IMG/VR virus record: IMGVR_UViG_3300049489_000585
Location: 1 to 54,913 of that record
Direction: 5' to 3' (one strand)
DNA: 54,913 nt
From: a virus
Lineage: Duplodnaviria; Caudoviricetes
The position numbers and the translations under genes are program-made. This document shows, one piece after another, positions 1 through 54,913 of the stretch. Below the pieces are notes generated by a model. It saw only the letters and a program-made list of their open reading frames with translations. It was not told where the DNA came from and ran no database searches. Numbering within the stretch: position 1 is the stretch's first letter; every line of letters starts with the position of its first letter.

Positions 1-127
1 ATGTCAGTCCTTTCGCGTCGGCGCATTGAGGCCGAACCCTTCGTTCCACCGGACAAGCCCCGGCGGGTGGCATTGGCGCAATGACCTACTTGGTCAGCGC
101 CGGGTCTTGCCGGTGAACTCCGACGTT
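1..127 (+). repeat. Exact duplicate of 53924-54050 (end of cassette 7 with attC7), here joined directly to cassette 9
   Basis: Identical up to CGACGTT, then diverges (GTGCCG at 128 versus AGGCGT at 54051). Confidence 0.95.
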
Positions 128-784
128 GTGCCGCACTGAACACCGCCGCGCCAGTTCCACCAGCCAAGCGCGGAACTCCGGCGGCGTGTGCTCTCGCTCG
201 GCCTTGCTCATGATCTCGACCGTCGTGCATTCGGGCATCCGCACCACGACGGCGGTGTGCTGGCGCGGGGGCGGTATCGTCGGCAGGTCGTCGGGGCCAG
301 CGCCTACGATGTACAGCCAAGTGCGCTTCTCTGCGCGGTGGCCCCAGTCCACTTGCCGAACCTCGGCTGTCCAGCCGCCGAACTGGTCGGGCGTGCGCCC
401 GCGCTGCGGCAGGCCGTAGTGCCGCCATGCGCGGCTGCCTGCCGGGTGCTCCAGCACGCCGCCGCAGCGACGCACCGTGTCCAGCGCGAACTTGAACGTG
501 CCGCCGTCGTTGCCCCAAGCGAATTCCGCGGCCTTGTGCGGGTAGCGAGACAGCACCACGCCATTGATCATCGACCAGCGCGTGCAAGGTGGATGCGCCA
601 CAACCGGCAGCGTGCCTCGGTACGTCGTGGCATCGCGCACCTTGTCCCACACGTCCACGCCTGGCATGGCCTTGTAGCCGCTGTCCTCGCGCGCAAAGAG
701 CACGGCCACGCCTGCGCGGTGCGGCACAACACGCCCATCGAGCCGAGGCCCAACAGCGGCAACGGTAGTGGCTTCGTCCAGCAT
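86..784 (-). CDS. Cassette 9: DNA cytosine methyltransferase-like protein
   Basis: VAVLF SAM-binding start, HPPC (motif IV PC), VLEHP (ENV-like), WGH..KRTWLY. Starts inside attC9 and stops inside the preceding attC. Confidence 0.65.
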   Translation of the reverse strand: MLDEATTVAAVGPRLDGRVVPHRAGVAVLFAREDSGYKAMPGVDVWDKVRDATTYRGTLPVVAHPPCTRWSMINGVVLSRYPHKAAEFAWGNDGGTFKFALDTVRRCGGVLEHPAGSRAWRHYGLPQRGRTPDQFGGWTAEVRQVDWGHRAEKRTWLYIVGAGPDDLPTIPPPRQHTAVVVRMPECTTVEIMSKAEREHTPPEFRAWLVELARRCSVRHNVGVHRQDPALTK

Positions 785-823
785 GCTCAGCGCTGTTGGT
801 CCCGGCTCATGGGCACGTTGTGC
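724..823 (+). other. attC: attC9 (100 bp)
   Basis: GCACAAC...imperfect palindrome...GTTGTGC. GTGCGGCACAAC pairs with GTTGTGCCGCAC at 125. Confidence 0.9.
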
Positions 824-824
824 G

Positions 825-1142
825 TCAGTAGCAGATCACGCGCGCCAGGTGCGCCACCGTCGTGACCTTGATCGTCTTCCCGCTGGTGCTGGTCACTTCC
901 AGGCCCTTGGCGCCCATGTCGTTTTCCCAGCAGTACCATTCCAGCCACTCGGCGTCATCGCCCAGCTCGCGGGCCAAGCACGATGTGTAGGCATCCCACA
1001 TGCGGCCCATGGCAAGCGCTATCGGCGCCTCGGGGCCGCACTTGGTTAGCGCCTGCAGTGCCGTGTATTGGGCCTGCCAGTCGTCATACATGCGCTGCCA
1101 CTCAAGCAAGCGCGGCGCAATGTCTCGGGGCTTCTTCTTCAT
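825..1142 (-). CDS. Cassette 10: hypothetical protein
   Basis: ORF fills the cassette and has a GGAG RBS upstream. Confidence 0.75.
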   Translation of the reverse strand: MKKKPRDIAPRLLEWQRMYDDWQAQYTALQALTKCGPEAPIALAMGRMWDAYTSCLARELGDDAEWLEWYCWENDMGAKGLEVTSTSGKTIKVTTVAHLARVICY

Positions 1143-1169
1143 GCCAATGCACTCCTACTTCCACCAGCC

Positions 1170-1258
1170 GCACAACTGGTCGTTGCAACGGACGGCCCTA
1201 CGGCCGTCCTGTGGTCCGCGAAGGCCCGGCAGGGCCGCCGCTGAACTGGTCGTTACAC
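1170..1258 (+). other. attC: attC10 (89 bp)
   Basis: GCACAAC...GTTACAC. CGCACAAC pairs with GTTGTGCG at 817. Confidence 0.88.
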
Positions 1259-1885
1259 AGCAAAGTCGCGGCACTTGATCTTGGCGATCAACCGATGCCC
1301 ACTGCGGGTGTTCAACTCGATCTGAGGCCTGGCAACGATGCCCTCAGCCTGGAAGTCACCCCACGTCGATTGAATGCCGCGCTTTGCCCAAGCGACTGCA
1401 TCGTGCAACGTGCCAGCCCCAATCACCGGCGCAACATCAAGGCCCAACTTCTGCGCCACGTCATGCACATCATCGCGCTGCAGCCACCACTGCCCAACGC
1501 GCACATCGAACAGCGCGAAGCCTTGGTCTGGCCGGTAGTTGCCGCCGCCCTTCTGGATCTTGGCGCCGTAGCCCTCGCCATACAGCACCGCCTGGCCGTC
1601 TGCAAACACCTCGCCCAGCTTTGCGGCCAGTGGCAAGAAGCGTTCATTCAGGCGGCCCACCAGTTGCGCCGGGATCTGCGCGTCCTCGGTGCGCCCACCG
1701 AACGTGATGCCGCCGTCCTTGAAGATCACGCGGATGTTCGTGCCGTCCACCTTCTCGGTGAAGGTCCACACGTTGCCTGCAAGGTACTCAAACTCAGGCA
1801 GGGTCCATTGGCCTTCAAGCAGCGTCTTGTGCTTGCTGGTCATGTCGCGCTTGAAGAGGGTCTGAATCTTGTGGTACTCGCTCAC
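1253..1885 (-). CDS. Cassette 11: RNA ligase (Rnl2-like nucleotidyltransferase domain)
   Basis: Motifs EKVDGTN, YGEGYG, FALFDV, EGIVARP, KIK. The TAA stop lies in the recombination core. Confidence 0.88.
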   Translation of the reverse strand: MSEYHKIQTLFKRDMTSKHKTLLEGQWTLPEFEYLAGNVWTFTEKVDGTNIRVIFKDGGITFGGRTEDAQIPAQLVGRLNERFLPLAAKLGEVFADGQAVLYGEGYGAKIQKGGGNYRPDQGFALFDVRVGQWWLQRDDVHDVAQKLGLDVAPVIGAGTLHDAVAWAKRGIQSTWGDFQAEGIVARPQIELNTRSGHRLIAKIKCRDFAV

Positions 1886-1904
1886 GGGTCATTTCCTGGT
1901 TGCT

Positions 1905-1994
1905 GTGTAACCCTGCGCTCAACCGGAGCGCCTCGGGCAGCATCACGCTGCGGGTGAATTCGGCTCGTGGCTCCCGGTTATCTCCACGTTATGG
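1905..1994 (+). other. attC: attC11 (90 bp)
   Basis: GTGTAAC...GTTATGG. TTGCTGTGTAAC pairs with GTTACACAGCAA at 1252. Confidence 0.9.
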
Positions 1995-2168
1995 CGCCAC
2001 TCGCTTCGCCACCCGAAGCCGCCTGCGAGCGATCTTCGCGGCGGCTTCCTTCACTTCGGCGTGGTCGTCCGGGTGCGCGAAGATGCCGCGCACTTCGGTT
2101 GCTGTCGTCTCAGCCTTGCGCTGGCGAAACTCTCGCTGGCGCTCGGCGTTGGTCTTGGCGGGGCTCAT
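1989..2168 (-). CDS. Cassette 12: small basic putative DNA-binding protein (59 aa, MSPAKTNAERQREFRQRK...)
   Basis: Hand-translated, below the ORF-track cutoff. ATGA overlap with the upstream ORF and TAA stop in the core site. Confidence 0.7.
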   Translation of the reverse strand: MSPAKTNAERQREFRQRKAETTATEVRGIFAHPDDHAEVKEAAAKIARRRLRVAKRVAP

Positions 2169-2578
2169 CGCGCAACATCAGACGCCGCGTCCTCAAGCGA
2201 GGTAGCCTTGCTAGGCAGCAACCCGGCGGCGATGCGCGTCAGTTCAACCACGCGCTGCGCGACGACTTCGGTGCTTGCCGCGTTCTTGGCGGCCGCACGC
2301 ACAACACCATCAAACGCGCCCCTGTACTGACTCGCAAGCGAATTGGCAATCTCTTTCTCGATGCTCTTCATGAGGGACGGTGAAACGCATGCCTGCGCGA
2401 TGCCAACCTTGAGGGCCGCGAGAATTTGCGCCTCGGACTCGGAGACAGCCTTGTCCATCGCCTTCTTGAGCTGATTCCCGGTTCCGTACTGGTCGCGCAT
2501 CATCGATTCGATGGCCTGCTGAAGGCCGCGCTGAATCCAGCTCTGAATGGTTTCTTCGGTGATAGTTACTGCGGGCAT
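2165..2578 (-). CDS. Cassette 12: hypothetical alpha-helical protein
   Basis: ORF with AAGGA RBS, in an operon with its neighbours. Confidence 0.75.
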   Translation of the reverse strand: MPAVTITEETIQSWIQRGLQQAIESMMRDQYGTGNQLKKAMDKAVSESEAQILAALKVGIAQACVSPSLMKSIEKEIANSLASQYRGAFDGVVRAAAKNAASTEVVAQRVVELTRIAAGLLPSKATSLEDAASDVAR

Positions 2579-2600
2579 GGTTTAGTCCTTTGTGTGTGGT

Positions 2601-2846
2601 TCACAGGTCTCTCCAGTTCGTCTGCTTTTCGTCGGCGTAGTCCAGACCGAAGCAGCACTTGATTCGCATGCACAGGGTTTCGTCTGCGCCGTTGATGATG
2701 ATGCGGCCTTTGCCAAGGAAGCGGCCGAACAATGCGCGTTGCTCAGTGGCTGACATGCGGCCCATCCACTCGCCGAACACGGTGCCAGTCTTCTCCACCA
2801 AGAACAGGGCCATCTGTGCGGCGTAGTCGGTGCGGGTGGCTTGCAT
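2601..2846 (-). CDS. Cassette 12: hypothetical protein
   Basis: GGAG RBS before ATG 2846. Confidence 0.7.
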   Translation of the reverse strand: MQATRTDYAAQMALFLVEKTGTVFGEWMGRMSATEQRALFGRFLGKGRIIINGADETLCMRIKCCFGLDYADEKQTNWRDL

Positions 2847-2871
2847 GTCGTTCTCCGGTTGCTGTGCGTTC

Positions 2872-2900
2872 ATTGTGCGCCACCGTTACGCGTAACACAA
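2872..2900 (-). promoter_or_regulatory. Cassette-internal sigma70 promoter with palindromic operator
   Basis: TTGTGT-17-CACAAT on the minus strand. Perfect palindrome GTTACGCGTAAC (2885-2896) lies over the spacer. Confidence 0.6.
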
Positions 2901-2936
2901 GCTGCATTTGCATCTTTACATTCGCGTGCCTACGCG

Positions 2937-2990
2937 CCATAACCCTGCGCTCAACCGGACCGAGTACGGCCGGTTAGCTCCACGTTGGGC
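2937..2990 (+). other. attC: attC12 (54 bp)
   Basis: CCATAAC...GTTGGGC. GCGCCATAAC pairs with GTTATGGCGC at 1988. Near copy of attC3. Confidence 0.9.
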
Positions 2991-3574
2991 TTCATGAACA
3001 CCAGCCAGTGCGTGCCGGCCTTCTTGCCGCTCGTGTTGCCGAACAGCGGTTGATGCGGCGTCAGCGCCAGCACTTCCGACAGCTTCACCTGCGTCTCGTT
3101 CCACTTGAACACCAGCACGCCATCGGGGTGCAGCACGCGGAAGCACTCGCTGAAGCCGGCGCGCAGGTCTTCGCGCCAGTCCTGGCCCAGCTTGCCGTAC
3201 TTCGCGGCCAGCCAAGAGCGCGGGCCTGCGCGCACCAGGTGCGGCGGGTCGAACGCCACCAGCCGGAACGTGCCGTCATCGAAGGGCAGTGCGCGGAAGT
3301 CCATCAGCAAGTCGGGGCATACCGTCAGCGTGCGCGTGCCATCCTGGCGGCCGTGGCTGCGGTCGGTCACTGTCAGCGTCTCGCTGCGGCGGTCGCCGAA
3401 CACCGCGTCCGGGTGTCCACGGTCGAACCACATCATGCGGCTGCCGCTGCACGGGTCCAACACGCGGGGCGAGGAATCGGCGTTGAAGCCCAACCCTTCG
3501 TGCGAGCCGACATGCCCCGGCGGGGCTTCGGTGGTCATCGAATCATCGTTGCGGGGCATGCGGCTCCACTCCAT
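2951..3574 (-). CDS. Cassette 13: SAM-dependent (probable DNA amino-) methyltransferase
   Basis: VLDPCSGSRM motif I, FDPPH motif IV, FKWNE. Candidate starts lie inside attC13 and the stop lies inside attC12. Confidence 0.85.
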   Translation of the reverse strand: MEWSRMPRNDDSMTTEAPPGHVGSHEGLGFNADSSPRVLDPCSGSRMMWFDRGHPDAVFGDRRSETLTVTDRSHGRQDGTRTLTVCPDLLMDFRALPFDDGTFRLVAFDPPHLVRAGPRSWLAAKYGKLGQDWREDLRAGFSECFRVLHPDGVLVFKWNETQVKLSEVLALTPHQPLFGNTSGKKAGTHWLVFMKPNVELTGRTRSG

Positions 3575-3582
3575 CGTTGAGC
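3488..3582 (+). other. attC: attC13 (95 bp), last site of array
   Basis: GCCCAAC...GTTGAGC. TGAAGCCCAAC pairs with GTTGGGCTTCA at 2984. Confidence 0.9.
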
Positions 3583-10051: not shown

Positions 10052-10080
10052 AATCTACACGCACCGTTTATGCATGTCAA
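10052..10080 (-). promoter_or_regulatory. Leftward early promoter (PL-like)
   Basis: TTGACA-17-TAGATT on the minus strand. Confidence 0.8.
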
Positions 10081-11649: not shown

Positions 11650-12464
11650 ACTACTACGAACACCACCTCGGCGACTACGACGGCGCCACCGCGCACTTGA
11701 CGTGGCTGGAGGACTGCGCCTACCGGCGGATGCTGTGCCTGTACTACCGCACGGAGTCACCGCTGCCGGCCGATTTGAAGCAGGTCTGTCGCCTCGTGCG
11801 CGCTACCTCCAAGCCCGAGCGCGATGCGGTGCAGCAGGTGCTGGGGGAGTTCTTCGTTCTGGCCGACGACGGCTGGCGCAACACCAGGTGCGACGAGGAC
11901 ATCGCGGCGTATCACGAGCTAGAGCCCGAGCGCGAGGCCAAGCGCGAGAACGCGAAGGAGCGCCAGCGCCGGGCCCGTCAGCGGCGTGCGGAGCTGTTCG
12001 AGTCGCTACGCGGTCACAACATCGTGCCGCCGTACGACACCACGACGAAGGCACTTGAAGCGCTGCTGTCACGCGTGACAGATGCTCCACAAGTCACGGC
12101 ACCTGTCACACCTGTCACGTGTGACAACACGGCTACCCATACCCACCTCCCACCTCCCACCTCCCAGATTGAAGAGAAGAAGCCTTCGGCTTCTGGGCGC
12201 GGTTCGCGCCTTCCCGCCGACTGGGACCCCGGTCAGCCTGGCTTCGCGTTTGCCACGACGCTGGGGCTGGCGAACGGCGTCGTGACCGCCGAGCTCGACA
12301 AGTTCCGCGACCACTGGGCCGCCAAGACTGGCAAGGACGCCACCAAGGCCGACTGGCAGGCGGCGTGGCGCAACTGGTGCCGCAGGTCCGTCGAGATGCG
12401 TCCGCCGGCCCACGGCGGCCAGCACGGCGGCGGTGCGCCGTTCGACGCGTCGGAGGTGCGGTAA
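11646..12464 (+). CDS. YdaU/DUF1376-family replication initiator
   Basis: NYYEHHLGDY..ATAHL..LED.AYRRML..YY N-terminus, C-terminal FRDHW...DWQAAWRNW. TTG start. Confidence 0.85.
   Translation: MNYYEHHLGDYDGATAHLTWLEDCAYRRMLCLYYRTESPLPADLKQVCRLVRATSKPERDAVQQVLGEFFVLADDGWRNTRCDEDIAAYHELEPEREAKRENAKERQRRARQRRAELFESLRGHNIVPPYDTTTKALEALLSRVTDAPQVTAPVTPVTCDNTATHTHLPPPTSQIEEKKPSASGRGSRLPADWDPGQPGFAFATTLGLANGVVTAELDKFRDHWAAKTGKDATKADWQAAWRNWCRRSVEMRPPAHGGQHGGGAPFDASEVR
12066..12126. repeat. TGTCAC/GTGACA iteron-like cluster, candidate replication origin
   Basis: TGTCACGCGTGACA, AGTCAC, CTGTCACACCTGTCACGTGTGACA inside the initiator gene, as in lambdoid origins. Confidence 0.6.
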
Positions 12465-37408: not shown

Positions 37409-38031
37409 GTGACCGGCATGACGCGCGACGAGTTCAGCGCCATCGAGCCGGCAGCACTGGGCGCCGTCGACATCGGCGACGAGGCGAACGGCACCGCCCA
37501 GCGCGTCGTCGTCAGGGCGCTGAAGGTTGGCCAGCTTCCAGCCTTCGCGCGCGCTGTGCGGCCGCTGACGGCGCAGGTCGAGGCGCTGATCGCCGGCGGC
37601 CTGTCGGTGAACGCCGTGCTGGCGCTGCTGGAGCAGCACACCGACAAGGTCGTCGAGGCCCTGGCGGTGGCCACCGGTGCGTCGTCTGCCGCGCTGAACG
37701 ACAGCAGCGTCGAGCAGATCGGCGAGCTGCTGCTGGCCGTGCTGGCGGCGAACAAGGATTTTTTGCGCGGCCGGCTGACGGCAGCCCTTCGGACGGCCGC
37801 GACGTTGAACCCTGGGGCTGGGCAGACACCGTCGCAGCCCTGAAGGCGTCCGGGTCGTGGTCGCTCGACGAGATCAAGGGGCTGACGCTTGAGCAGGTTC
37901 GCGACTTCCTGACGGCAGCCGACAGGCAGCAGCGCGACCGCCGGCTCGGCGACGCGATCGCCGCACGGATGGCCCAGGCCGAAGGCAAGCACTGGAAGGC
38001 CTACGTGAAGGGGATCAAGGGTGGCCGCTGA
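37409..38031 (+). CDS. Tail assembly chaperone G (37409-37843) and -1 frameshift G-T extension
   Basis: Slippery GGATTTTTTG at 37756-37765. The -1 frame is open up to the tape-measure start. Confidence 0.8.
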
Positions 38032-47644: not shown

Positions 47645-48928
47645 TCAGCCGACTTTGCGGTCTTTCGACTTGCGCAAGTCATTGATTTTCAACACGTGCG
47701 CACCGCGGGAACGGGTTGTGATTCTGGTCGTCGTGGGTTCGAGTCCCATCAGCCACCCCACCCTATGAGAATCGGCCACTTCGGGGGCCTTTTTCTTGGC
47801 CGGCTCGGACGGCACTTGTCGCGCCGTTGTCGCAGGCCCGATGTTCCCGGCCCATGCCGCGACGTGGCTCGGCGCCAAGTGGGCGTAGCGCTGCAGCATG
47901 TCGGCCGAAGCCCAGCCGCCGAGTTCCTGCAGGGCGCTGTCAGGCGTTCCGGCCATGCGGTGCCAGCTGGCCCAGGTGTGCCGCAGGTCGTGCCAGCGCA
48001 GCGTGGGTAGCCCGGCCCGAATGCAGGCCTTGCGCCAGGCCGCGCTGCTGGCCTTGCCGGTGGGCATCTCCCAGGTCAGCCGCGGCTTGTCCTCCGGCCG
48101 GCGCTTCTTGGTCCACCGCGGGGCCGGGAACACCCAGCGCTTGTGCATGCCCTGCTGGCCGCGCAGCACGTCCATGGCGTCGGGGTTCAGCGGCACCGAG
48201 AGCGCCTTGCCGGCCTTGGCCTCGTCGGCGTGCACCCAGGCGGCCGCCCGCGGCAGGTCGACCTCTGACCACTGCAGCAGCCGGACGTTGCTCTCGCGCA
48301 GGCCGGTGGCCAGCGCGAAGCGGGCCATGGCGCGCAGGTGGTCCGGCAACTCGGCCAGCAGCGCCAGCGCTTGCTCGTGCGTGATCCAGTTCGTGCGGCC
48401 CTCGGGCTCGTGCAGCTTGGGCACCGGGGGCGGCGCCGGCAGCCAGCCGCGCAGTTGGGCGTGCTTCAGGATGCGCGACAGGTCGCTCAGGTAGCGGTTG
48501 ACGGTGGCCGGCGACAGCATGCGCGGCGCCGGTGGCCTCTCTCCGGCAGCCTTGGCGGCCTCGATGTCGGCGGCGTTCGCCGGCTCGGCCTGGCGCTCGC
48601 TGCTGATCTTGCGCACCATGTCGGCGGTGATGCCGGCCAGCGGCTTGCCGATCAGGCGGGCGGACAGCCAGCGGAGGTTCCGCTTGGCCTCCTCGAGGCT
48701 GCGCAGGTGCTGGTGCTCATCCAGCCACGACAGGACCGCTTCGTCCCAGGTGTGGGACGGCGCCTCACCTAGACGGTGCTGCCGCCACTGATCGCGGTAA
48801 GCCGTGGCGGCCCACTCCTTCGCCGCGGCTTCGTCCGTGGTGCCAGTGCTGCGGACAAAGCGCCGGCCGTCCTGGGCGGTGAAATCGACCCACCAGGTGC
48901 CGCGCTTGCCTCGTCGGTAGACCCGCAT
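47645..48928 (-). CDS. int: Phage tyrosine integrase
   Basis: STGT, ATVNRYL, TGLRESN, HDLRHTWASW, LGGW, RYAH. Confidence 0.95.
   Translation of the reverse strand: MRVYRRGKRGTWWVDFTAQDGRRFVRSTGTTDEAAAKEWAATAYRDQWRQHRLGEAPSHTWDEAVLSWLDEHQHLRSLEEAKRNLRWLSARLIGKPLAGITADMVRKISSERQAEPANAADIEAAKAAGERPPAPRMLSPATVNRYLSDLSRILKHAQLRGWLPAPPPVPKLHEPEGRTNWITHEQALALLAELPDHLRAMARFALATGLRESNVRLLQWSEVDLPRAAAWVHADEAKAGKALSVPLNPDAMDVLRGQQGMHKRWVFPAPRWTKKRRPEDKPRLTWEMPTGKASSAAWRKACIRAGLPTLRWHDLRHTWASWHRMAGTPDSALQELGGWASADMLQRYAHLAPSHVAAWAGNIGPATTARQVPSEPAKKKAPEVADSHRVGWLMGLEPTTTRITTRSRGAHVLKINDLRKSKDRKVG
47716..47760 (+). other. attP: attP core = 3' half of tRNA-His(GTG)
   Basis: TTGTGATTCTGGTCGTCGTGGGTTCGAGTCCCATCAGCCACCCCA gives the anticodon loop, T-arm, acceptor strand and CCA. 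The 5' half is absent. Confidence 0.9.
47774..47797 (+). terminator. Terminator for reconstituted tRNA
   Basis: GGCCACTTCGGGGGCC followed by TTTTTCTT just after the CCA. Confidence 0.6.
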
Positions 48929-49122
48929 TCGTCCTTGCTCCCTGCCGCTGGCGGCCGATGGTACTGGGTGCGCACCCACTCGATCAGATCCTCGTCGATG
49001 AACAGCCACGCCCGCCCGACCTTGGTCGCCGGCAGCCCGCGGCGCTCGATGGCCTCGGTGACGGTGTCCGGGTGCGCCTTCAGCATCTTGGCGGCGCGGG
49101 TGAGGGTGAGGATGCGGGCCAT
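48769..49122 (-). CDS. xis: Excisionase-like HTH protein
   Basis: LTLTRAAKMLKAHPDTV...GLPATKVGRAWLF. Overlaps the int start. Confidence 0.8.
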   Translation of the reverse strand: MARILTLTRAAKMLKAHPDTVTEAIERRGLPATKVGRAWLFIDEDLIEWVRTQYHRPPAAGSKDECGSTDEASAAPGGSISPPRTAGALSAALAPRTKPRRRSGPPRLTAISGGSTV

Positions 49123-49124
49123 GG

Positions 49125-50222
49125 TCAGACCAGCGAGTCCAGCGGGCTGCGCACGCACATGCCGCCCTGCTTGGCCGGCAGGACGTGGGTATAGATCATC
49201 GTGGTCTCCAGATCGGCGTGGCCGAGTAGGGCCTGAATCGTGCGGATGTCGTACCCGTCCTGCAGCAGGTGGGTGGCAAAGGAGTGCCGCAATGTGTGCG
49301 GGGTGGCGCGCTTCATGATCCCGGCGCCGGCCACGGCCCGGGCCATCAGGCGCTGGATGCCGTCCTCGTGAAGGTGGTGGCGCCTGACAAGGCCAGTCCG
49401 CGGGCACGTGACGTAGGTGTCGGTGGCGAAGATCCACTGCCAGCGGATGTCCTGCCCGGCCCGCGGGTACTTCAGGTGCAGCGCGTGCGGAAGCTCGACG
49501 TCGGCCCGGCCGGCAGTGAGGTCGACCTGGTGCAGCGCCTTGCGCGCTTCCATCACCTCGCGCAGCTGGCCGGCCAGCGATCGCGGCAGCATGACGGTTC
49601 GATCCTTGGCGCCCTTGCCGTCGCGGACGGTGATGCTGCTCGACTCGATGTCCGCGTCCTGCATGCGCAGGCGCAGACCTTCCGTCAGCCGCAGGCCAGC
49701 GCCGTACAGCAGGCGCAACACCAGGCCGCGGATGTTGGCCTGCGGGATCTGCAGCCACAGGCGCGCCACCTCGTCCCGAGTGAGCACGACCGGCAACTTC
49801 TGCGGCTGCTTGGCGCGCACGATTCCCTCGACCCATGGCAGCTCGACCTGCAGGGCTTGCTGGTACAGGAAAAGCAGCGCGGCCAGGGCCTGGCGCTGGG
49901 TGCTGGCCGACACGTCGCGCACCTGGGCAAGATGCGTGAGGAACTGCGACACCTCCGGCGCGCCCATCTCGAGCGGGTGGCGCTTGCCGGACCACAGCAC
50001 GAACTGGCGCGTCCAGTGCCAGTAGGCCTGCTCCGTACGGCGCGAATAGTGTTTGGCCCTGATCGCGCCGACCACCAGGTGGCGCAGGTGGCCAGGCTCA
50101 CCCGGCTGCGGCTCACTCGCGGATGCAGGAACGCTGCTGCGGGCCAGCCCATCTCCGCGAGCCAGCGCGACAGCGCGGCGCGTAACGGGCTGGCAGGTCG
50201 GCGGTGCTTGGAGGATGGCCAT
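49125..50222 (-). CDS. intI: Integron integrase
   Basis: HYSRRTEQAY, STQRQALAALLFLY, LPVVLT, LLYGAGLR, GKGAKDR, IntI-specific insertion LPHAL..KYPRAG...WQWIF...RRHH, HTLRHSFATHLL, LLGH.D..TTMIYTHV, RSPLD. Confidence 0.97.
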   Translation of the reverse strand: MAILQAPPTCQPVTRRAVALARGDGLARSSVPASASEPQPGEPGHLRHLVVGAIRAKHYSRRTEQAYWHWTRQFVLWSGKRHPLEMGAPEVSQFLTHLAQVRDVSASTQRQALAALLFLYQQALQVELPWVEGIVRAKQPQKLPVVLTRDEVARLWLQIPQANIRGLVLRLLYGAGLRLTEGLRLRMQDADIESSSITVRDGKGAKDRTVMLPRSLAGQLREVMEARKALHQVDLTAGRADVELPHALHLKYPRAGQDIRWQWIFATDTYVTCPRTGLVRRHHLHEDGIQRLMARAVAGAGIMKRATPHTLRHSFATHLLQDGYDIRTIQALLGHADLETTMIYTHVLPAKQGGMCVRSPLDSLV

Positions 50223-50229
50223 GGCGTCG

Positions 50230-50270
50230 GGTGTTACACCGCAGATCCTGCGGTCGAATTGAAGTTAGGC
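50230..50270 (+). other. attI: attI site
   Basis: Core G|TTAGGC at 50264 is not part of an attC hairpin. Upstream TGTTACACCGCAG resembles the attI1 accessory repeat at similar spacing. Confidence 0.8.
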
Positions 50271-50518
50271 GTCTCAACGCGCTCCCACCAGCCGCCCCAC
50301 TCAGCAGGCGTCAGTCTGTCGGCGTGCAAGTGTTCGTGCGGCTGGCAGCACTTCAGCTTGCGCGGCATGTAGTCGTTCGGCCTATCGCCTTGCAAGCGCG
50401 GCGCGCTGGCGTTGGTGTAGCCAACGAACAGCACTTGTTCGCGCATGCGTCCGAGCACGTCGCTATAGCGGTTCCGGTAGGTGCCAACCTCGGTCGGCAA
50501 GGTCTTTGTGTACGCCAT
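50234..50518 (-). CDS. Cassette 1: hypothetical protein
   Basis: AAGGAG RBS. Reads through attI and stops 11 nt before the intI ATG. Confidence 0.7.
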   Translation of the reverse strand: MAYTKTLPTEVGTYRNRYSDVLGRMREQVLFVGYTNASAPRLQGDRPNDYMPRKLKCCQPHEHLHADRLTPAEWGGWWERVETPNFNSTAGSAV

Positions 50519-50564
50519 CGCTTTCTCCTTTGTTCGCTGGCCTGGGTCACGCGCCGGTGGCAAC

Positions 50565-50630
50565 GCCTAACCCGTCGTCCGACCTGACAGCCCCGGCAAG
50601 CCGGGTCTGCAGGTCAACTTTGCGTTAGGG
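50565..50630 (+). other. attC: attC1 (66 bp)
   Basis: GCCTAAC...GTTAGGG. ACGCCTAAC pairs with GTTAGGCGT at attI. Confidence 0.92.
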
Positions 50631-50631
50631 C

Positions 50632-51381
50632 TCAAAACCCCATGCCCTGCTGCTCCGGCACGGGCTGCGCCAAATCGAGCAGGGAACCTTGCGCGTAAGC
50701 GGCTTCTATCCGCTGGCACGCCAAATCGAAGGCAGCGCGGTCAACCTCGCAGCCTATGAACTTCCGCCCAGCGCGGGCACATGAAACGCCAGTCGTTCCT
50801 GCGCCCATGTGCGTGTCCAGCACCGTGTATCCGGGCCGCGAGTAGTCCGCCACCAGCGCATCCATCAGCAGGGTCGGCTTGCCACCCATGCGGGCCTTGT
50901 CGTTCCAGCCAGGCCCGGCCACGTAGCCGCCCGGCAGCGTGCCCCACTTCATCTGCGCCTTGGTGCGCGCCACCACAATCCAGTCCGTCCACGAGCTGGG
51001 GCCGTCACCACTCAGGCGCACAGCGCGCCCCGGCTGGTAAAAGGGCAGCGGTGCAAACGCATAGCGCCCGGCCTTCTCCAGCGCGGTGCGCACAGCCAGC
51101 GCCAAGTCGCTGTCGGTCATCCACACCACCCAGCCGCTGCACACCCGCGTGTACTGCTCGGCAAAGTACGCCACGTCTTCAAGCGTCAGCGCGCGGTAGC
51201 CCAGGGCCTGCCGTTCGGCGCTGTCGCGTGCTTTCGAGGCACCGGCATCGTGGCCCGCGTGGCACCGTTCGCTGTAGGGCGGGTCGGTTATCACCGCGTC
51301 CACGCTGGCAAGCGTGGGCAGCACTTCGCGGCAATCACCGCGGTGCAGTGTGGCTTGCCCAATGGTCACGGTCTCCAGCAT
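50632..51381 (-). CDS. Cassette 2: N6/N4 DNA methyltransferase (beta class)
   Basis: GDC.EVL, ITDPPY, KP, VLDTHMGAGTTG, FIGCE. Confidence 0.92.
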   Translation of the reverse strand: MLETVTIGQATLHRGDCREVLPTLASVDAVITDPPYSERCHAGHDAGASKARDSAERQALGYRALTLEDVAYFAEQYTRVCSGWVVWMTDSDLALAVRTALEKAGRYAFAPLPFYQPGRAVRLSGDGPSSWTDWIVVARTKAQMKWGTLPGGYVAGPGWNDKARMGGKPTLLMDALVADYSRPGYTVLDTHMGAGTTGVSCARAGRKFIGCEVDRAAFDLACQRIEAAYAQGSLLDLAQPVPEQQGMGF

Positions 51382-51405
51382 TCGTTGTCCTCGTAGCAAA
51401 TACAG

Positions 51406-51464
51406 CCCTAACAGGTCGCTCAAACGGACGGGCCTACGGCCCGCCGTTTAGCTTTGCGTTAGCC
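51406..51464 (+). other. attC: attC2 (59 bp)
   Basis: CCCTAAC...GTTAGCC. AGCCCTAAC pairs with GTTAGGGCT. Confidence 0.92.
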
Positions 51465-51922
51465 CGCTCAAGCGGATCCAGCACAAATTCCGCGATGTGA
51501 CGGCCGGTGCCCTTTCCTGCGGATCCGTCCTCGGTCGCAAGCCAGCGCACGTCGCCCAGGTTGCGTACCTTCGCGCCCTCGGCCAGCAGCATCAGCACCC
51601 ACTTGTCTATCGGGTACACCAGCACCACGCGCTTGCCCTTCTTGGCTTCGGCAATCGCCTTCCGGGCCCAGGCCGTCGGCCCCTTCTTCTTCCCCTGGTG
51701 CATCACGGATCCAAAGGGCGGGTTGACGTAGTTACTTTCGCCCCACTCGCACGTAAGGCCGTCGAACTCGGGCGGCTTCGGGTAAGGGCACGGGTCGAAG
51801 GTGAAGCTGTAGCGCGCGTGCAGGTCTGCGAACAAATCCGGCGGCGTCAGCCAGTAGTGCTTGCCATCGTCGCCGTTGCCAGCGTGGAACTTGTTTGCGT
51901 CAGGTGCTAGGTTGTTTGCCAT
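51434..51922 (-). CDS. Cassette 3: phage Dam-like N6-adenine methyltransferase
   Basis: WLTPP, FDPCP, DGL..EW, YVNPPF. Stop lies inside attC2. Confidence 0.85.
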   Translation of the reverse strand: MANNLAPDANKFHAGNGDDGKHYWLTPPDLFADLHARYSFTFDPCPYPKPPEFDGLTCEWGESNYVNPPFGSVMHQGKKKGPTAWARKAIAEAKKGKRVVLVYPIDKWVLMLLAEGAKVRNLGDVRWLATEDGSAGKGTGRHIAEFVLDPLERANAKLNGGP

Positions 51923-51947
51923 CGTTCTCTCATTTGTTGTTGCAGCG

Positions 51948-52001
51948 GGCTAACCCGCCGCTGAACCGGACTGAGTACAGCCGGTTAGCTGCACGTTCGG
52001 C
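51948..52001 (+). other. attC: attC3 (54 bp)
   Basis: GGCTAAC...GTTCGGC. AGCGGGCTAAC pairs with GTTAGCCCGCT. Confidence 0.92.
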
Positions 52002-52009
52002 TTCATGCC

Positions 52010-52354
52010 TCAGTTCGCCATGTCGGCGGCAGCCAGCACAATCGCGCGCCTCGTGGCGGCCCGCGGGTCCGTTCCCCACAGCACATCGTGCGCCACAGCC
52101 TCGCCGTCAAAGGCAACGCCGGCCACCGTCACCGCGCCCTCGGTCAGAGTCTGCGCAATGTCTAGTTCCAGCGTCACGGCAAGGTCCAGCGCCTGGCCGC
52201 TGTCGGTCAGAGGGTTCCACCACGTCGCGTGCGTCAGCCACAGTGAGGGCTCGTTCGGCATCTCGGCCTCACGCTCGCTCTGCTTGCGTGCGTTCAGTCC
52301 GTAGCCGGCGGCTTGCGCGGCCTTCAGCAGCAGTTCTTTGTCCGTCAGCATCAT
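52010..52354 (-). CDS. Cassette 4: phage hypothetical protein (possibly NinX/ABA-sandwich-like)
   Basis: WNPLTDSGQALDLAV...ATRRAIV.AAA. AGGAG RBS. Confidence 0.75.
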   Translation of the reverse strand: MMLTDKELLLKAAQAAGYGLNARKQSEREAEMPNEPSLWLTHATWWNPLTDSGQALDLAVTLELDIAQTLTEGAVTVAGVAFDGEAVAHDVLWGTDPRAATRRAIVLAAADMAN

Positions 52355-52387
52355 CTCGCTCCTTTGAATTCACGCGCTCCGGCCGCA

Positions 52388-52439
52388 GCCGAACTACTCG
52401 CTCAAGCCGACCTTCGGCGGCTTAGCTCGAACGTTATGC
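52388..52439 (+). other. attC: attC4 (52 bp)
   Basis: GCCGAACTACTCGCTCAAGCCGACCTTCGGCGGCTTAGCTCGAACGTTATGC, a typical top-strand attC pattern. Confidence 0.92.
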
Positions 52440-52440
52440 A

Positions 52441-52851
52441 TCAGTAACCCGGGTAGTTGCGCTCGGCCTGCGCATCGTTGTGCTTGCTCCAATACTCTGC
52501 CTTCGCCGTGGTGTAGCTCCACTCGTTGCGCCCGTCTTCAGGCCCAGCCACCGTGTACGGTCCGAACTCACTTTGCACATTCCTTGCCCGCAGCGCCGAC
52601 AGAATGCAAGCCGGGCAATCGTTCGCAGCCTCACACATCGCCTTGAACCCACTCGCATCCAGCAGGCGCAGCAGTTCATCGCGCGGCGGCGCTGGCTCTG
52701 GCCCGCCATCGTCGTGCAGATTGGCGCACATGCCGCACACACGCTGCGGGTTCAGCGTGCAGCCGCGCTCGTGGCGCTTCATTGCGCTCGGGCTTCCGTT
52801 GCCCTTGTTGCAGTGGTCGCAGTAGTAGCGCGGCCTCATTGCGGTTCTCAT
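52441..52851 (-). CDS. Cassette 5: zinc-finger protein
   Basis: CDHC...H...C...C..C, CPAC. GAGGA RBS. Confidence 0.78.
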   Translation of the reverse strand: MRTAMRPRYYCDHCNKGNGSPSAMKRHERGCTLNPQRVCGMCANLHDDGGPEPAPPRDELLRLLDASGFKAMCEAANDCPACILSALRARNVQSEFGPYTVAGPEDGRNEWSYTTAKAEYWSKHNDAQAERNYPGY

Positions 52852-52878
52852 GCTTGTCCTCTCCGTTCACCAACTGAT

Positions 52879-52936
52879 GCATAACCCTTCGCTCGAACGG
52901 ACGGCCTACGGCCGCCGTTCAGCTCCCACGTTAGCC
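52879..52936 (+). other. attC: attC5 (58 bp)
   Basis: GCATAAC...GTTAGCC. ACTGATGCATAAC pairs with GTTATGCATCAGT. Confidence 0.92.
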
Positions 52937-52946
52937 AGACACATGC

Positions 52947-53294
52947 TCACTTCAGTATCTGGCGAAGAGCCCAGTACTCGGGGTTGACGATGGCGGTCAT
53001 GGCATCGCTGAACACCAGGCCGCCAATCAGCGCGGTAAGCCCGCAAACGATGCCGACGCCAATCCAAGCAAGGCCGCGGTCAAACTCATCGTTCCATTCG
53101 GGCCTATCACCAGATGTTTTCCTGCCCACAAAGCGCGCGACCCACACGCACGCAGCAGCCCACGCGGTCAACACCACCAAGTCAAGCGCGCCAGAGAGCG
53201 GAGCCTGCTTCACCAGCACGCCCCACAGATACTCCGCCGTTGTGCCGAGTTTGTTTGCCAGCGCCGTCACGGCCTGCAAGGTCTTGTCGTCCAT
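52947..53294 (-). CDS. Cassette 6: two-TM membrane protein
   Basis: LA.KLGTTAEYLW.VL.KQA, two hydrophobic helices, NPEYWAL. Confidence 0.78.
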   Translation of the reverse strand: MDDKTLQAVTALANKLGTTAEYLWGVLVKQAPLSGALDLVVLTAWAAACVWVARFVGRKTSGDRPEWNDEFDRGLAWIGVGIVCGLTALIGGLVFSDAMTAIVNPEYWALRQILK

Positions 53295-53331
53295 GTCATT
53301 CCTATTCGCATGCCAGCATTTCACCAGTGCT

Positions 53332-53394
53332 GGCTAACTGGCGCATGCAGCGGACTCGCCCTAGCGGGCTCGCGCGCTGATGCTGTCGTTCGGC
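53332..53394 (+). other. attC: attC6 (63 bp)
   Basis: GGCTAAC...GTTCGGC. CTGGCTAAC pairs with GTTAGCCAG. Confidence 0.9.
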
Positions 53395-53395
53395 C

Positions 53396-53713
53396 TCAAG
53401 TTCCAACCTTGTCGGCCGTCCCCTTCCAGGTGAATTCGCCATCGGCGCCCACCGGGAAGTGCGCGCGGCAGATGGCGCAGAACGTGCCGCTGTAGAAGGC
53501 GGGCTCGCGGGCATAGGTCTCGGCCAGCGCCAGGCCCATCGTCGTCACGCCGCCGCACTTTTCGTGCACGTAGGACTGGCGCACGGGCCGCACAAAGCCC
53601 TTCGCGCGCTCTTCGGCGCTCAGCACCACGTAGCCCTTCTGCTGCCCCGTGGCCGGGTCAATCTCGCGGTGGTCGGGCGTGACGGGCGAACCGTCTGTCA
53701 GCGTGGTGTTCAT
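53396..53713 (-). CDS. Cassette 7: zinc-ribbon hypothetical protein
   Basis: KGFVRPVR.SY.H.KCG, TFC..C..HFPV. Confidence 0.78.
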   Translation of the reverse strand: MNTTLTDGSPVTPDHREIDPATGQQKGYVVLSAEERAKGFVRPVRQSYVHEKCGGVTTMGLALAETYAREPAFYSGTFCAICRAHFPVGADGEFTWKGTADKVGT

Positions 53714-53926
53714 TGCTTCTCCGCAAGCTCGAAATTGAAGGCGCCGCCTTCGATGTTGAAAGAACAGACGAAACGCCCGGTCTCGTCCACCTCTTGCGCC
53801 GGAATCGACACCTTGCTGCCCAGCCTGCGCAGCAGCGCAATCAGAAGCTGGTCCTTGAAGTCGTCGATCACGTCCGCGTGCAGCCCAGCGCCAGCGGCGC
53901 GAGCGGCATCAGTTCCCTTGCCCATG
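53710..53926 (-). CDS. Cassette 7: hypothetical protein
   Basis: AAAGGA RBS before ATG 53926, ATGA coupling. Confidence 0.7.
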
Positions 53927-53953
53927 TCAGTCCTTTCGCGTCGGCGCATTGAG

Positions 53954-54054
53954 GCCGAACCCTTCGTTCCACCGGACAAGCCCCGGCGGGTGGCATTGGC
54001 GCAATGACCTACTTGGTCAGCGCCGGGTCTTGCCGGTGAACTCCGACGTTAGGC
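53954..54054 (+). other. attC: attC7 (101 bp)
   Basis: GCCGAAC...GTTAGGC. TTGAGGCCGAAC pairs with GTTCGGCCTCAA. Confidence 0.9.
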
Positions 54055-54269
54055 GTCTTGCTGTCATCGAAGCCGTGCTCCACGGCTCGCCAGTCGCCGC
54101 GCCTGGCTTCGCGCATGTCCAGCGCGCGGAATTCGGCCGTGATCTGCCTGCGGAACTTGCGCGCCGCGTTCACATCGGCAGTCACGGTCATGTTCACCTG
54201 ACAGGCCATGTAGAGCCCGGTGGACTTCCCGTCCTTGGTGAAGTTCTCCACCAGCCACGAGTACGTCAT
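54009..54269 (-). CDS. Cassette 8: hypothetical protein
   Basis: GAGGA RBS. Stop lies inside attC7. Confidence 0.7.
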   Translation of the reverse strand: MTYSWLVENFTKDGKSTGLYMACQVNMTVTADVNAARKFRRQITAEFRALDMREARRGDWRAVEHGFDDSKTPNVGVHRQDPALTK

Positions 54270-54484
54270 GAGTAGTCCTCGTCAAAGTTGCACGGCACCG
54301 TCCACTGCTTGCCGCAGCGGCTGCACTCGATGATGTCGTGATCGTCTATTACGCCGCAGCAGTCCACAGTGCGCGGCGCCGGGCATCTTTGCAGGTGCTT
54401 CTGGCAAAGCTCGGGCTTCTCGGCATCGTGCAGGCTGCACCCGCCTTTGATACGGCCACCTTCGTAGCGCTTAGGCGTCGTCAT
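54266..54484 (-). CDS. Cassette 8: small Cys-rich protein
   Basis: Multiple Cys, ECSRCGKQW..PCNFDEDYS, overlaps neighbours. Confidence 0.6.
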   Translation of the reverse strand: MTTPKRYEGGRIKGGCSLHDAEKPELCQKHLQRCPAPRTVDCCGVIDDHDIIECSRCGKQWTVPCNFDEDYS

Positions 54485-54746
54485 ACAGGTCGTATCGCTG
54501 GCAAAGCGCGTCCATGTCAAGCCGGGCGCGCTGCGTCACCAGTTCGCGTCCGTCACGAAATACCACGCAGCGGTAGCGCTGGCCCGGACGAATCTTCCAC
54601 TTGTCGGCCTCAACGCCTTCAAGCACCAGCCGCTCGTCAGCAGTTACGGCATCGCGCGGCTGGCCGTAACTGCGCCACATTTCGCTGGCGTCGCAGTCGT
54701 AGAACTTGCGCGCGGTTCTCACTTCGTCTTTCAGTACCAATACCAT
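54471..54746 (-). CDS. Cassette 8: hypothetical protein
   Basis: GAGGAG RBS. RTARK.Y.CDA...I.PGQRY. Confidence 0.72.
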   Translation of the reverse strand: MVLVLKDEVRTARKFYDCDASEMWRSYGQPRDAVTADERLVLEGVEADKWKIRPGQRYRCVVFRDGRELVTQRARLDMDALCQRYDLYDDA

Positions 54747-54769
54747 CGTTTGCTCCTCTGCGCCACGAC

Positions 54770-54823
54770 GCCTAACCCGTCATTCGAGCCGACCGTTCCG
54801 GCGGCTCAATTCCCACGTTGTGC
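54770..54823 (+). other. attC: attC8 (54 bp)
   Basis: GCCTAACCCGTCATTCGAGCCGAC...CGGCTCAATTCCCACGTTGTGC. GACGCCTAAC pairs with GTTAGGCGTC. Confidence 0.93.
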
Positions 54824-54913
54824 CGCACTGAACACCGCCGCGCCAGTTCCACCAGCCAAGCGCGGAACTCCGGCGGCGTGTGCTCTCGCTCGGCCTTGCT
54901 CATGATCTCGACC
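54815..54913 (+). repeat. Exact duplicate of 123-221 (start of cassette 9); circular overlap
   Basis: ACGTTGTGCCGCACTGAAC...GATCTCGACC is identical at both places. Confidence 0.95.

Follow-up and report, generated by a model that had tools for sequence, protein, structure and literature searches.

We found that the two ends of IMG/VR virus record IMGVR_UViG_3300049489_000585, a DNA contig of 54,913 nt which was analysed as a whole (the window), carry two versions of one integron cassette array, differing by the presence or absence of a single 769-bp gene cassette, cassette 8. By its sequence the window is a complete, circularly closing temperate tailed phage genome, and the array adjoins an integron integrase gene (intI) and an attI site. 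The difference between the ends is probably the result of IntI-type recombination at the crossover points of attC sites in this phage-borne integron, with the two alleles coexisting.

The stretch 53924–54050 reappears identically at 1–127, position 128 being the first mismatch (identity test), and the last 96 bases of the window (54818–54913) are identical to 126–221. Positions 1–221 equal 53924–54913 less 769 bp, and chance cannot produce exact repeats as long as 127 and 96 nt. Placed by the G|TT convention, the extra segment is 54049–54817 and only the right end has it. The letters common to both junctions are ACGTT only (123–127 = 54046–54050 = 54815–54819), and the base preceding them differs between the junctions (G vs C). 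An earlier sequence-only reading of this DNA had described the same arrangement, in which 1–127 equals 53924–54050 and runs straight into cassette 9 at the left end, an extra three-gene cassette of 769 bp with its attC8 is present at the right end, and the junctions share ACGTT alone; the identity test and a comparison of the letters returned the same coordinates. The implied circle is 54,692 bp long with cassette 8 and 53,923 bp long without it. The features at the two ends were the following, with attC matches scored by the covariance model described below.

1 to 127, plus strand: left contig end, a second copy of the 5' end of cassette 7 and attC7, then cassette 9 directly, i.e. the cassette-8-less allele (identity test; attC model match at 28–131, 51.1 bits)
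128 to 221, plus strand: start of cassette 9, the same as 54820–54913 (identity of 126–221 with 54818–54913)
53953 to 54048, plus strand: attC7, 96 nt, of the long type, with the R' crossover at G54048|T54049 (model match at 53951–54054, 53 bits; outside the training set)
54049 to 54817, plus strand: cassette 8, 769 bp, number 8 of 13, which starts TTAGGCGTC and ends with attC8 (sequence anatomy)
54769 to 54817, plus strand: attC8, 49 nt, with the R' crossover at G54817|T54818 (chain rule and helix; model match of 66.5 bits)

Judged by IntI, attI, attC and cassette structure, the segment is a true integron cassette and the integron is complete. The sequence-only reading had assumed an integron, and this was borne out, as IntI, attI, 13 attC sites and 13 cassettes were all found. 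The integron (intI, attI and 13 cassettes) extends over about 8 kb between the early recombination genes and the phage integrase gene. The array leaves the window at the right end and resumes at 222, meaning that the contig ends lie inside it.

49125 to 50222, minus strand: intact IntI, 365 aa (TIGR02249, 412.7 bits against a cutoff of 265; PF00589 and PF13495)
50264 to 50270, plus strand: attI core GTTAGGC, with the crossover at G50264|T50265, 42 nt from the intI start
50265 to 54913, plus strand: cassettes 1–8 and the start of cassette 9, with starts at 50265, 50625, 51459, 51996, 52434, 52931, 53389, 54049 and 54818 (chain rule and attC model)
222 to 3576, plus strand: the rest of cassette 9, then cassettes 10–13, with starts at 818, 1253, 1989 and 2985 (chain rule and attC model); attC13 ends at 3548 according to the chain script or at 3576 according to the model alignment

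All six catalytic residues of IntI (R178, K203, H309, R312, H335 and Y344) were invariant across six IntIs in an alignment with IntI1 and phage IntIs. The IntI-specific patch ALxxKYP..W..F is also kept, with P245, A247, L248, K251, Y252, P253, W261 and F265 invariant in the six. The XerC and XerD models scored the protein at 142–152 bits, compared with 412.7 bits for TIGR02249.

The cassettes are chained by a single rule: the attC which closes a cassette has an R'' box exactly complementary to the 7 nt following the G|TT at which that cassette begins. This chain rule was borne out in 13 of 13 cassettes. The helix of the nine short attCs was 88.9% paired, as opposed to 14–44% with the partners slid, and compensatory changes were found in 7 of its 15 pairs. 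As Rfam seems to hold no attC family (searched at gathering thresholds with the whole window, it yielded 0 matches), we built our own covariance model from the nine short attCs of the window. It recovered the four long attCs on which it had not been trained (30–53 bits) and the duplicate of attC7 at the left end, giving 14 matches (13 sites and the end duplicate; E ≤ 1.8e−5), all on the plus strand, and there was no further match at E < 0.1 in the remaining ~47 kb of the window. The minus strand of attC folds with a bulged T and G in the 3' arm, which is the arrangement of the recombinogenic bottom strand. The cassette-less end retains the entire body of attC7 and loses that of attC8, which fits a crossover at the R' ends of plus-strand attCs and not the opposite polarity.

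Cassette 8 contains three overlapping minus-strand open reading frames (ORFs) and attC8, whose R'' box, GACGCCTAAC, is the exact complement of the start of the cassette. The last ~13 codons and the stop of gene 1 fall in attC7, outside the cassette. When the three proteins were compared with Pfam and NCBIfam no family was found, and the sole match was phrog_13613. The nearest Atlas clusters to gene 1 are viral hypothetical proteins, which we take as a lead only, and the Atlas neighbours of the cassette 8 proteins as a set are hypothetical and mostly viral clusters.

54009 to 54269, minus strand: cassette 8 gene 1, 86 aa, no family (ORF; family searches)
54266 to 54484, minus strand: cassette 8 gene 2, 72 aa, Cys-rich, no family (ORF; family searches)
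54471 to 54746, minus strand: cassette 8 gene 3, 91 aa, phrog_13613, function unknown (2.7e−23, full length)

We compared Logan contigs of four public sequencing runs, which come from another assembler (k = 31), with 50200–54913; these four were taken from a list of 24 runs, in which the other 20 had shares of 0.15–0.18. One run, X1, contains 98% of the sampled words of this region and is probably the source sample. A 9,955-nt contig of X1, at a depth of 48.9, joins attC7 to cassette 9, passing from 54045 to 54815 and skipping 769; the junction at 120–135 of the window, on which the sequence-only reading had staked its claim, is therefore spanned by a contig of a second assembly. Contigs carrying cassette 8 were found in the same run at depths of 9.46 (54021–54670, opening with the final 30 nt of attC7) and 7.92, vs backbone depths of 48.4 (50200–51997) and 51.5 (52927–54050), and the X1 contigs were listed without any base difference from the window. 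Both alleles are present in the sequenced DNA, at a ratio of roughly 4:1 in favour of the cassette-less form. This agrees with the earlier statement that the population holds both array alleles, since X1 contigs carry both junctions, and a comparison of coverage over 54049–54817, which had been proposed with it, gave the contrast of 9.46 and 7.92 with flanks of 48–51.

A search for other joints which skip from one attC to another had also been suggested, and a second one was found in X1, from attC3 to cassette 6. Across the runs, all four joints of more than 700 nt equal exact sums of independently measured cassette lengths:

769 skipped: cassette 8 (run X1)
935 skipped: cassettes 4 and 5, 51996 to 52930, plus strand (run X1; attC3 to cassette 6, 51991 to 52927, depth 21.5, side 24)
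3784 skipped: cassettes 1–7 (run X3; attI to cassette 8, side 34), on a contig which links 50263 directly to 54048
1118 skipped: cassettes 6 and 7 (run X5; attC5-like end to cassette 8, side 30)

Depths in X1 were 48.4 for cassette 3, 22.3 for cassette 4, 47.2 for cassette 5 and 51.5 for cassette 6. Cassette 4 (22.3) and the joint which skips it (21.5) together roughly equal the depth of cassette 3; however, cassette 5 at full depth leaves the sum unclosed, and a different cassette whose attC is almost the same may have taken the place of cassette 4 (loose ends at 52397 and 52444). In X1 the depth over the 3' half of attC4 (about 52397–52436) rises to about 131, so this half-site also occurs in other integrons of the sample. 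Nine further joints (skipping 50–245 nt in cassettes 2, 3 and 5; sides 21–30) were rejected as recombination products and attributed to diverged homologues: they lie inside genes, and 8 came from runs X2, X3 or X5 and 1 from X1 (depth 3). Exact scans for the 3' end of attC7 gave 0 stretches in viral contigs and returned two metagenome contigs (L131 and L132), where an attC7-like site stands in other cassettes and neither allele was seen.

We also found cassette 8 at other positions in related arrays. In the IMG/VR locus L028, a three-gene homologue with 78% identity is the first cassette after attI, and in L016 a two-gene version with 93% identity is the first cassette and again the third. The homologues in both loci are bounded at the same points as cassette 8 in the window, and their placement shows the cassette, as far as position in the array can reveal it, to be mobile among related arrays. 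In L016 (positions 1–1300 of a 16,802 nt contig) the contig ends inside the second copy of this version, and the long attC contains the start codon of gene 2 and 17 of its codons.

The course of events which we propose would begin with IntI recombining the folded bottom (minus) strands of attC7 and attC8 at G|TT. Cassette 8 would be released in the form of a circle of 769 nt, and once the genome had replicated, one of the daughters would be left without it. The reverse reaction, insertion at attC7, would be possible but is less usual in integrons. The IntI responsible would be that of the phage itself, and the direction would be loss of the cassette rather than gain. The earlier claim that the integron is or recently was active stands in part: the array variants at exact attC points speak for it, but the event cannot be dated, and its timing is likewise something that we infer.

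The same proposal would account for the form of the record. Two array versions would make a bubble in the assembly graph, and an assembler which circled the genome would have begun with the short branch and finished with the long one, leaving ends which overlap with a 769-bp indel and a 'linear' class. The record, which has a CheckV completeness of 100, is indeed classed as 'linear', because its ends are without an exact repeat. A k of 127 nt is a common maximum in de Bruijn assemblers, and the contig plausibly begins at the branching node of the bubble in a k = 127 graph, although the assembler is not on record.

It should be noted that several points weigh against this explanation. The evidence consists of contigs and not of reads, and the allele frequencies come from mean k-mer depths. 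X1 is possibly the contig's own sample, in which case the assembler is independent and the data are not. The skip joint in X1 is anchored by 25 + 5 letters (the k − 1 overlap), below a caution limit of 30 letters, and joints with a side of < 30 at a likeness of 90 often stem from other organisms; the anchor of attC7 to cassette 9 in the IMG/VR contig is 127 nt. The junction of cassette 8 with cassette 9 was found only in the IMG/VR contig (96 nt) and is absent from the listed X1 pieces. Two X1 contigs continue otherwise past attC8-like ends (loose ends at 54819), so the depth of cassette 8 may partly belong to other integrons. The circle junction for which the sequence-only reading proposed a search did not appear, as no joint which goes back was listed in the Logan contigs, and contigs cannot show rare forms. 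The crossover is also not placeable within ACGTT, and two strains whose flanks are otherwise identical could not be told from two alleles of one phage.

This last point leads to the rival which survives best, although we consider it unlikely. Two related strains with long-fixed arrays may coexist, and the cassette difference would then be an old IntI event, silent on present activity. It is favoured by the mixing of strains in metagenomes, by the wide occurrence of cassette 8 in other samples (runs X2, X3 and X5, at depths of 53–209) and by a second array difference within X1. However, the flanks of both alleles are identical over 127 + 96 nt, and the X1 contigs through these flanks are single and show no listed differences, though contigs drop rare variants.

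We give very little credence to a deletion without IntI, in which slippage or template switching between the ACGTT repeats, aided by hairpins, would have removed the segment in vivo or during library preparation. Hairpins promote replication slippage, the attC hairpins could give such aid, and a 5-nt microhomology is present at both junctions. Against this, each end point coincides with the canonical G|TT of an attC, cassette boundaries are hit exactly by the other three large joints too, and the homologues found in L028 and L016 have the same limits; nor is the depth of the deleted form, near 40, that of a library artefact. An assembly or windowing artefact, with a junction of attC7 to cassette 9 which exists in no molecule, is barely credible: the left overlap measures exactly 127 nt, which is typical of k, and the record is classed as linear, but a k-mer collapse, at k = 31 or at k = 127, would need more than the 5 nt shared, as the sequence-only reading had argued of such a collapse, the second assembler gives the same junction on its 9,955-nt contig, and the window is the entire record, which excludes windowing.

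IntI-type recombination at attC7 and attC8 has a close parallel in bacteria. In attC × attC excision of class 1 and Vibrio chromosomal integrons, one cassette is lost between G|TT points and the body of the upstream attC is retained. The window is similar in that a single cassette between successive attC G|TT points is concerned and in that a T and a G are extrahelical on the bottom strand. It differs from the bacterial systems in that the replicon is a phage and in that neither a LexA box near intI nor a Pc-like promoter was found in our scans.

We compared the IntI of the window with those of other genomes. It has 53% identity to IntI1 of class 1 integrons over the alignment, with the same catalytic residues and IntI-specific patch, and falls below the cutoff of the class 1-type equivalog NF011946 (357 vs 435), pointing to a different IntI lineage. 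Relatives of the protein are encoded by 47 IMG/VR loci, and a module of the phage integrase gene (int), intI and attI is common to 7 IMG/VR loci at about 72% nucleotide identity. In 9 related loci the homology which reaches attI ends at 50269–50288, the crossover. Ten proteins from 6 further loci placed tail genes beside intI in 4 loci and a phage integrase in 2. A search over 185,579 species genomes gave 564 relatives, and among the best 80 of the 564 the top match was 68% identical, on a contig of a Rubrivivax metagenome-assembled genome, with the others at ≤ 55%. In a quick tree of 105 IntIs, with support from the Shimodaira–Hasegawa-like approximate likelihood ratio test (SH-aLRT), the window fell in a group of 24 rows of which 23 were viral (SH-aLRT 87); an inner group had 13 rows, of which 12 were viral (support 98). 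From this placement the IntI appears to belong to a mostly viral clade which is linked to phage integrase. We rejected a captured fragment of a host chromosomal integron as its origin, with a best identity of 68% among the best 80 of 564 matches and a mostly viral group in the quick tree.

In 7 of 29 related loci (L006, L009, L012, L013, L014, L025 and L029) the contig ends ≤ 210 nt from the intI start, so that assemblies of these phages seem to be broken routinely by their variable arrays. In the relatives the strict 7-nt chain rule counted too few cassettes, and the covariance model took its place.

The cassettes of the window are unusual in the direction of their genes. In all 13, the ORFs are on the minus strand, so that they run towards intI and are antisense to the top strand of attC, as judged by GC content at third codon positions (GC3), and in cassettes 2, 3, 8, 9, 11 and 13 the strand is also backed by homology. 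Cassette ORFs which are sense to the attC top strand, a trait of typical integrons, were not found in the window; this trait describes typical integrons and is unneeded for recombination. The attC model was also applied to two annotated controls, namely a class 1 integron and Shewanella phage M16-3. The four best matches there (E ≤ 0.0024) were on the ORF strand, and of three weaker matches one was on the other strand. Thus the class 1 control has cassette ORFs sense to attC and Shewanella phage M16-3 has its ORFs on the attC strand, whereas in the window all cassette ORFs are antisense.

The same arrangement was looked for in the related loci. In 21 IMG/VR loci, 64 of 64 attC matches were both upstream of intI and on the opposite strand, with at least one match in 20 of the 21. 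In 17 related loci, 75 of the 87 GC3-supported ORFs in the 5 kb beside intI were on the intI strand, a crude count given that 5 kb may extend beyond the arrays. The GC3 strand call was uninformative for 15 bacterial loci, where few or no ORFs passed the filter, so the contrast with bacteria is drawn from the two annotated controls. In 'inverted-integrase' integrons, such as that of Treponema denticola, intI is turned relative to attI and the ORFs are sense to attC. The window is like this type in that intI and the cassette genes are co-directional; it is unlike it in that the geometry of intI, attI and attC is canonical and the ORFs inside the cassettes are the part which is turned.

Several cassette ORFs, lacking their own stop, extend into the adjoining attC. 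The protein of cassette 9 (86–784, minus strand) ends ...NVGVHRQDPALTK beside attC7 and ...NVGIEPPERSARMTG beside attC8, and through this read-through the loss of cassette 8 alters its last 10–12 residues. The protein of cassette 8 gene 1 bears the same attC7-encoded tail as the cassette 9 protein. The cassettes with recognisable cargo were:

Cassettes 2 and 3, minus strand: DNA methyltransferases (family matches)
Cassette 9, minus strand: phrog_12600, methyltransferase-like
Cassette 11, 1253 to 1885, minus strand: RNA ligase (PF09414, 1.4e−20; phrog_548)
Cassette 13, minus strand: DNA methyltransferase phrog_954 (2.3e−69)

This cargo, 3–4 DNA methyltransferases and an RNA ligase, looks like a set of counter-defence genes. 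A scan for sigma-70-like promoters over 49000–54913 found 0 sites and no Pc-like promoter, scans for promoters and terminators inside the array found nothing above chance, and a search for LexA boxes gave 7 matches vs 17.9 expected, none of them near intI. The only promoter-like site heading the leftward gene block was the following:

10052 to 10080, minus strand: promoter-like site TTGACA-17-TAGATT, at the head of the leftward block which runs through the array to intI and int (consensus match only)

The cassettes may therefore be expressed by read-through from the early-left operon of the phage. Two near-identical 16-nt palindromes, CTGTCACGCGTGACAG and a copy with one mismatch, were observed at 12066–12081 and 12112–12127, 46 nt apart, and could be operators of LexA-box shape.

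The remainder of the window carries phage genes, including TerL (phrog_979, 3.2e−163), a head protease, a major head protein, a tape measure protein, a 1,431-aa tail protein, RecT and an integrase. The order of the genes is tail genes, int, intI, attI, cassettes and early genes, which places the integron inside the phage.

47645 to 49009, minus strand: phage integrase, immediately downstream of intI (phrog_1, 7.4e−65)

ARAGORN called an 89-nt tRNA-Asp(GTC) at 37419–37507 (minus strand), which overlaps a plus-strand ORF (37409–37843) in the tail region and is possibly a false call.

Integrons are bacterial devices which stockpile and reshuffle genes, including resistance genes and, as recognised lately, genes for anti-phage defence. 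Phage-borne integrons have been reported a few times. The parts of the report by Qi, Rajabal, Ghaly, Tetu and Gillings (2023; PMC9892861) on which we draw describe 3 complete integrons and 1 In0 among 10,705 NCBI phage genomes, with methyltransferase cassettes in phage integrons and phage attCs which work with IntI1. According to the same parts, two of the cases were pieces of host or plasmid integrons: the Vibrio (anguillarum) phage case is a subset of a host chromosomal integron, and the P1 case is a mosaic of class 1 integrons. The window is like the phage integrons described there in having a complete set of intI, attI and attC cassettes in a temperate phage, with methyltransferase cassettes. 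It is unlike the cases in those parts of the report in that its IntI falls in a mostly viral clade with phage integrase, in its 13 cassettes and in the two alleles found in one sample. Neither array polymorphism in a phage population nor an antisense-cassette lineage turned up in our literature search, which is no proof of absence, the supplementary tables of PMC9892861 having lain outside the search.

To these cases the record adds a full 13-cassette integron within a complete phage genome, coexisting array variants in one natural sample which are cut at exact recombination points, the same cassette at other positions in related phage arrays, and cargo which resembles counter-defence genes. 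Arrays which vary in this way disrupt assemblies and give complete circular phage genomes a linear appearance.

More tentatively, and with rather less confidence than an even chance, we suggest that a lineage of temperate phages with Burkholderiales-like hosts carries a phage-adapted integron, in which intI is welded to the phage integrase gene, the cassettes are antisense, transcription of the leftward early operon takes in the array last and finishes with intI, and a library of counter-defence genes is shuffled. If this is true, the expression of both the cassettes and the integrase would be tied to lytic growth or induction, and so would exposure of the recombinogenic bottom strand, the non-template strand in this transcription. 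Co-replicating phage genomes would then shuffle the counter-defence library, here the 3–4 DNA methyltransferases, the RNA ligase and small genes of no known function, and the polymorphism of cassette 8 would be that shuffling caught in the act. If the inverted polarity and the viral IntI clade hold, phages would own a version of the system which is a mirror of the defence integrons of bacteria.

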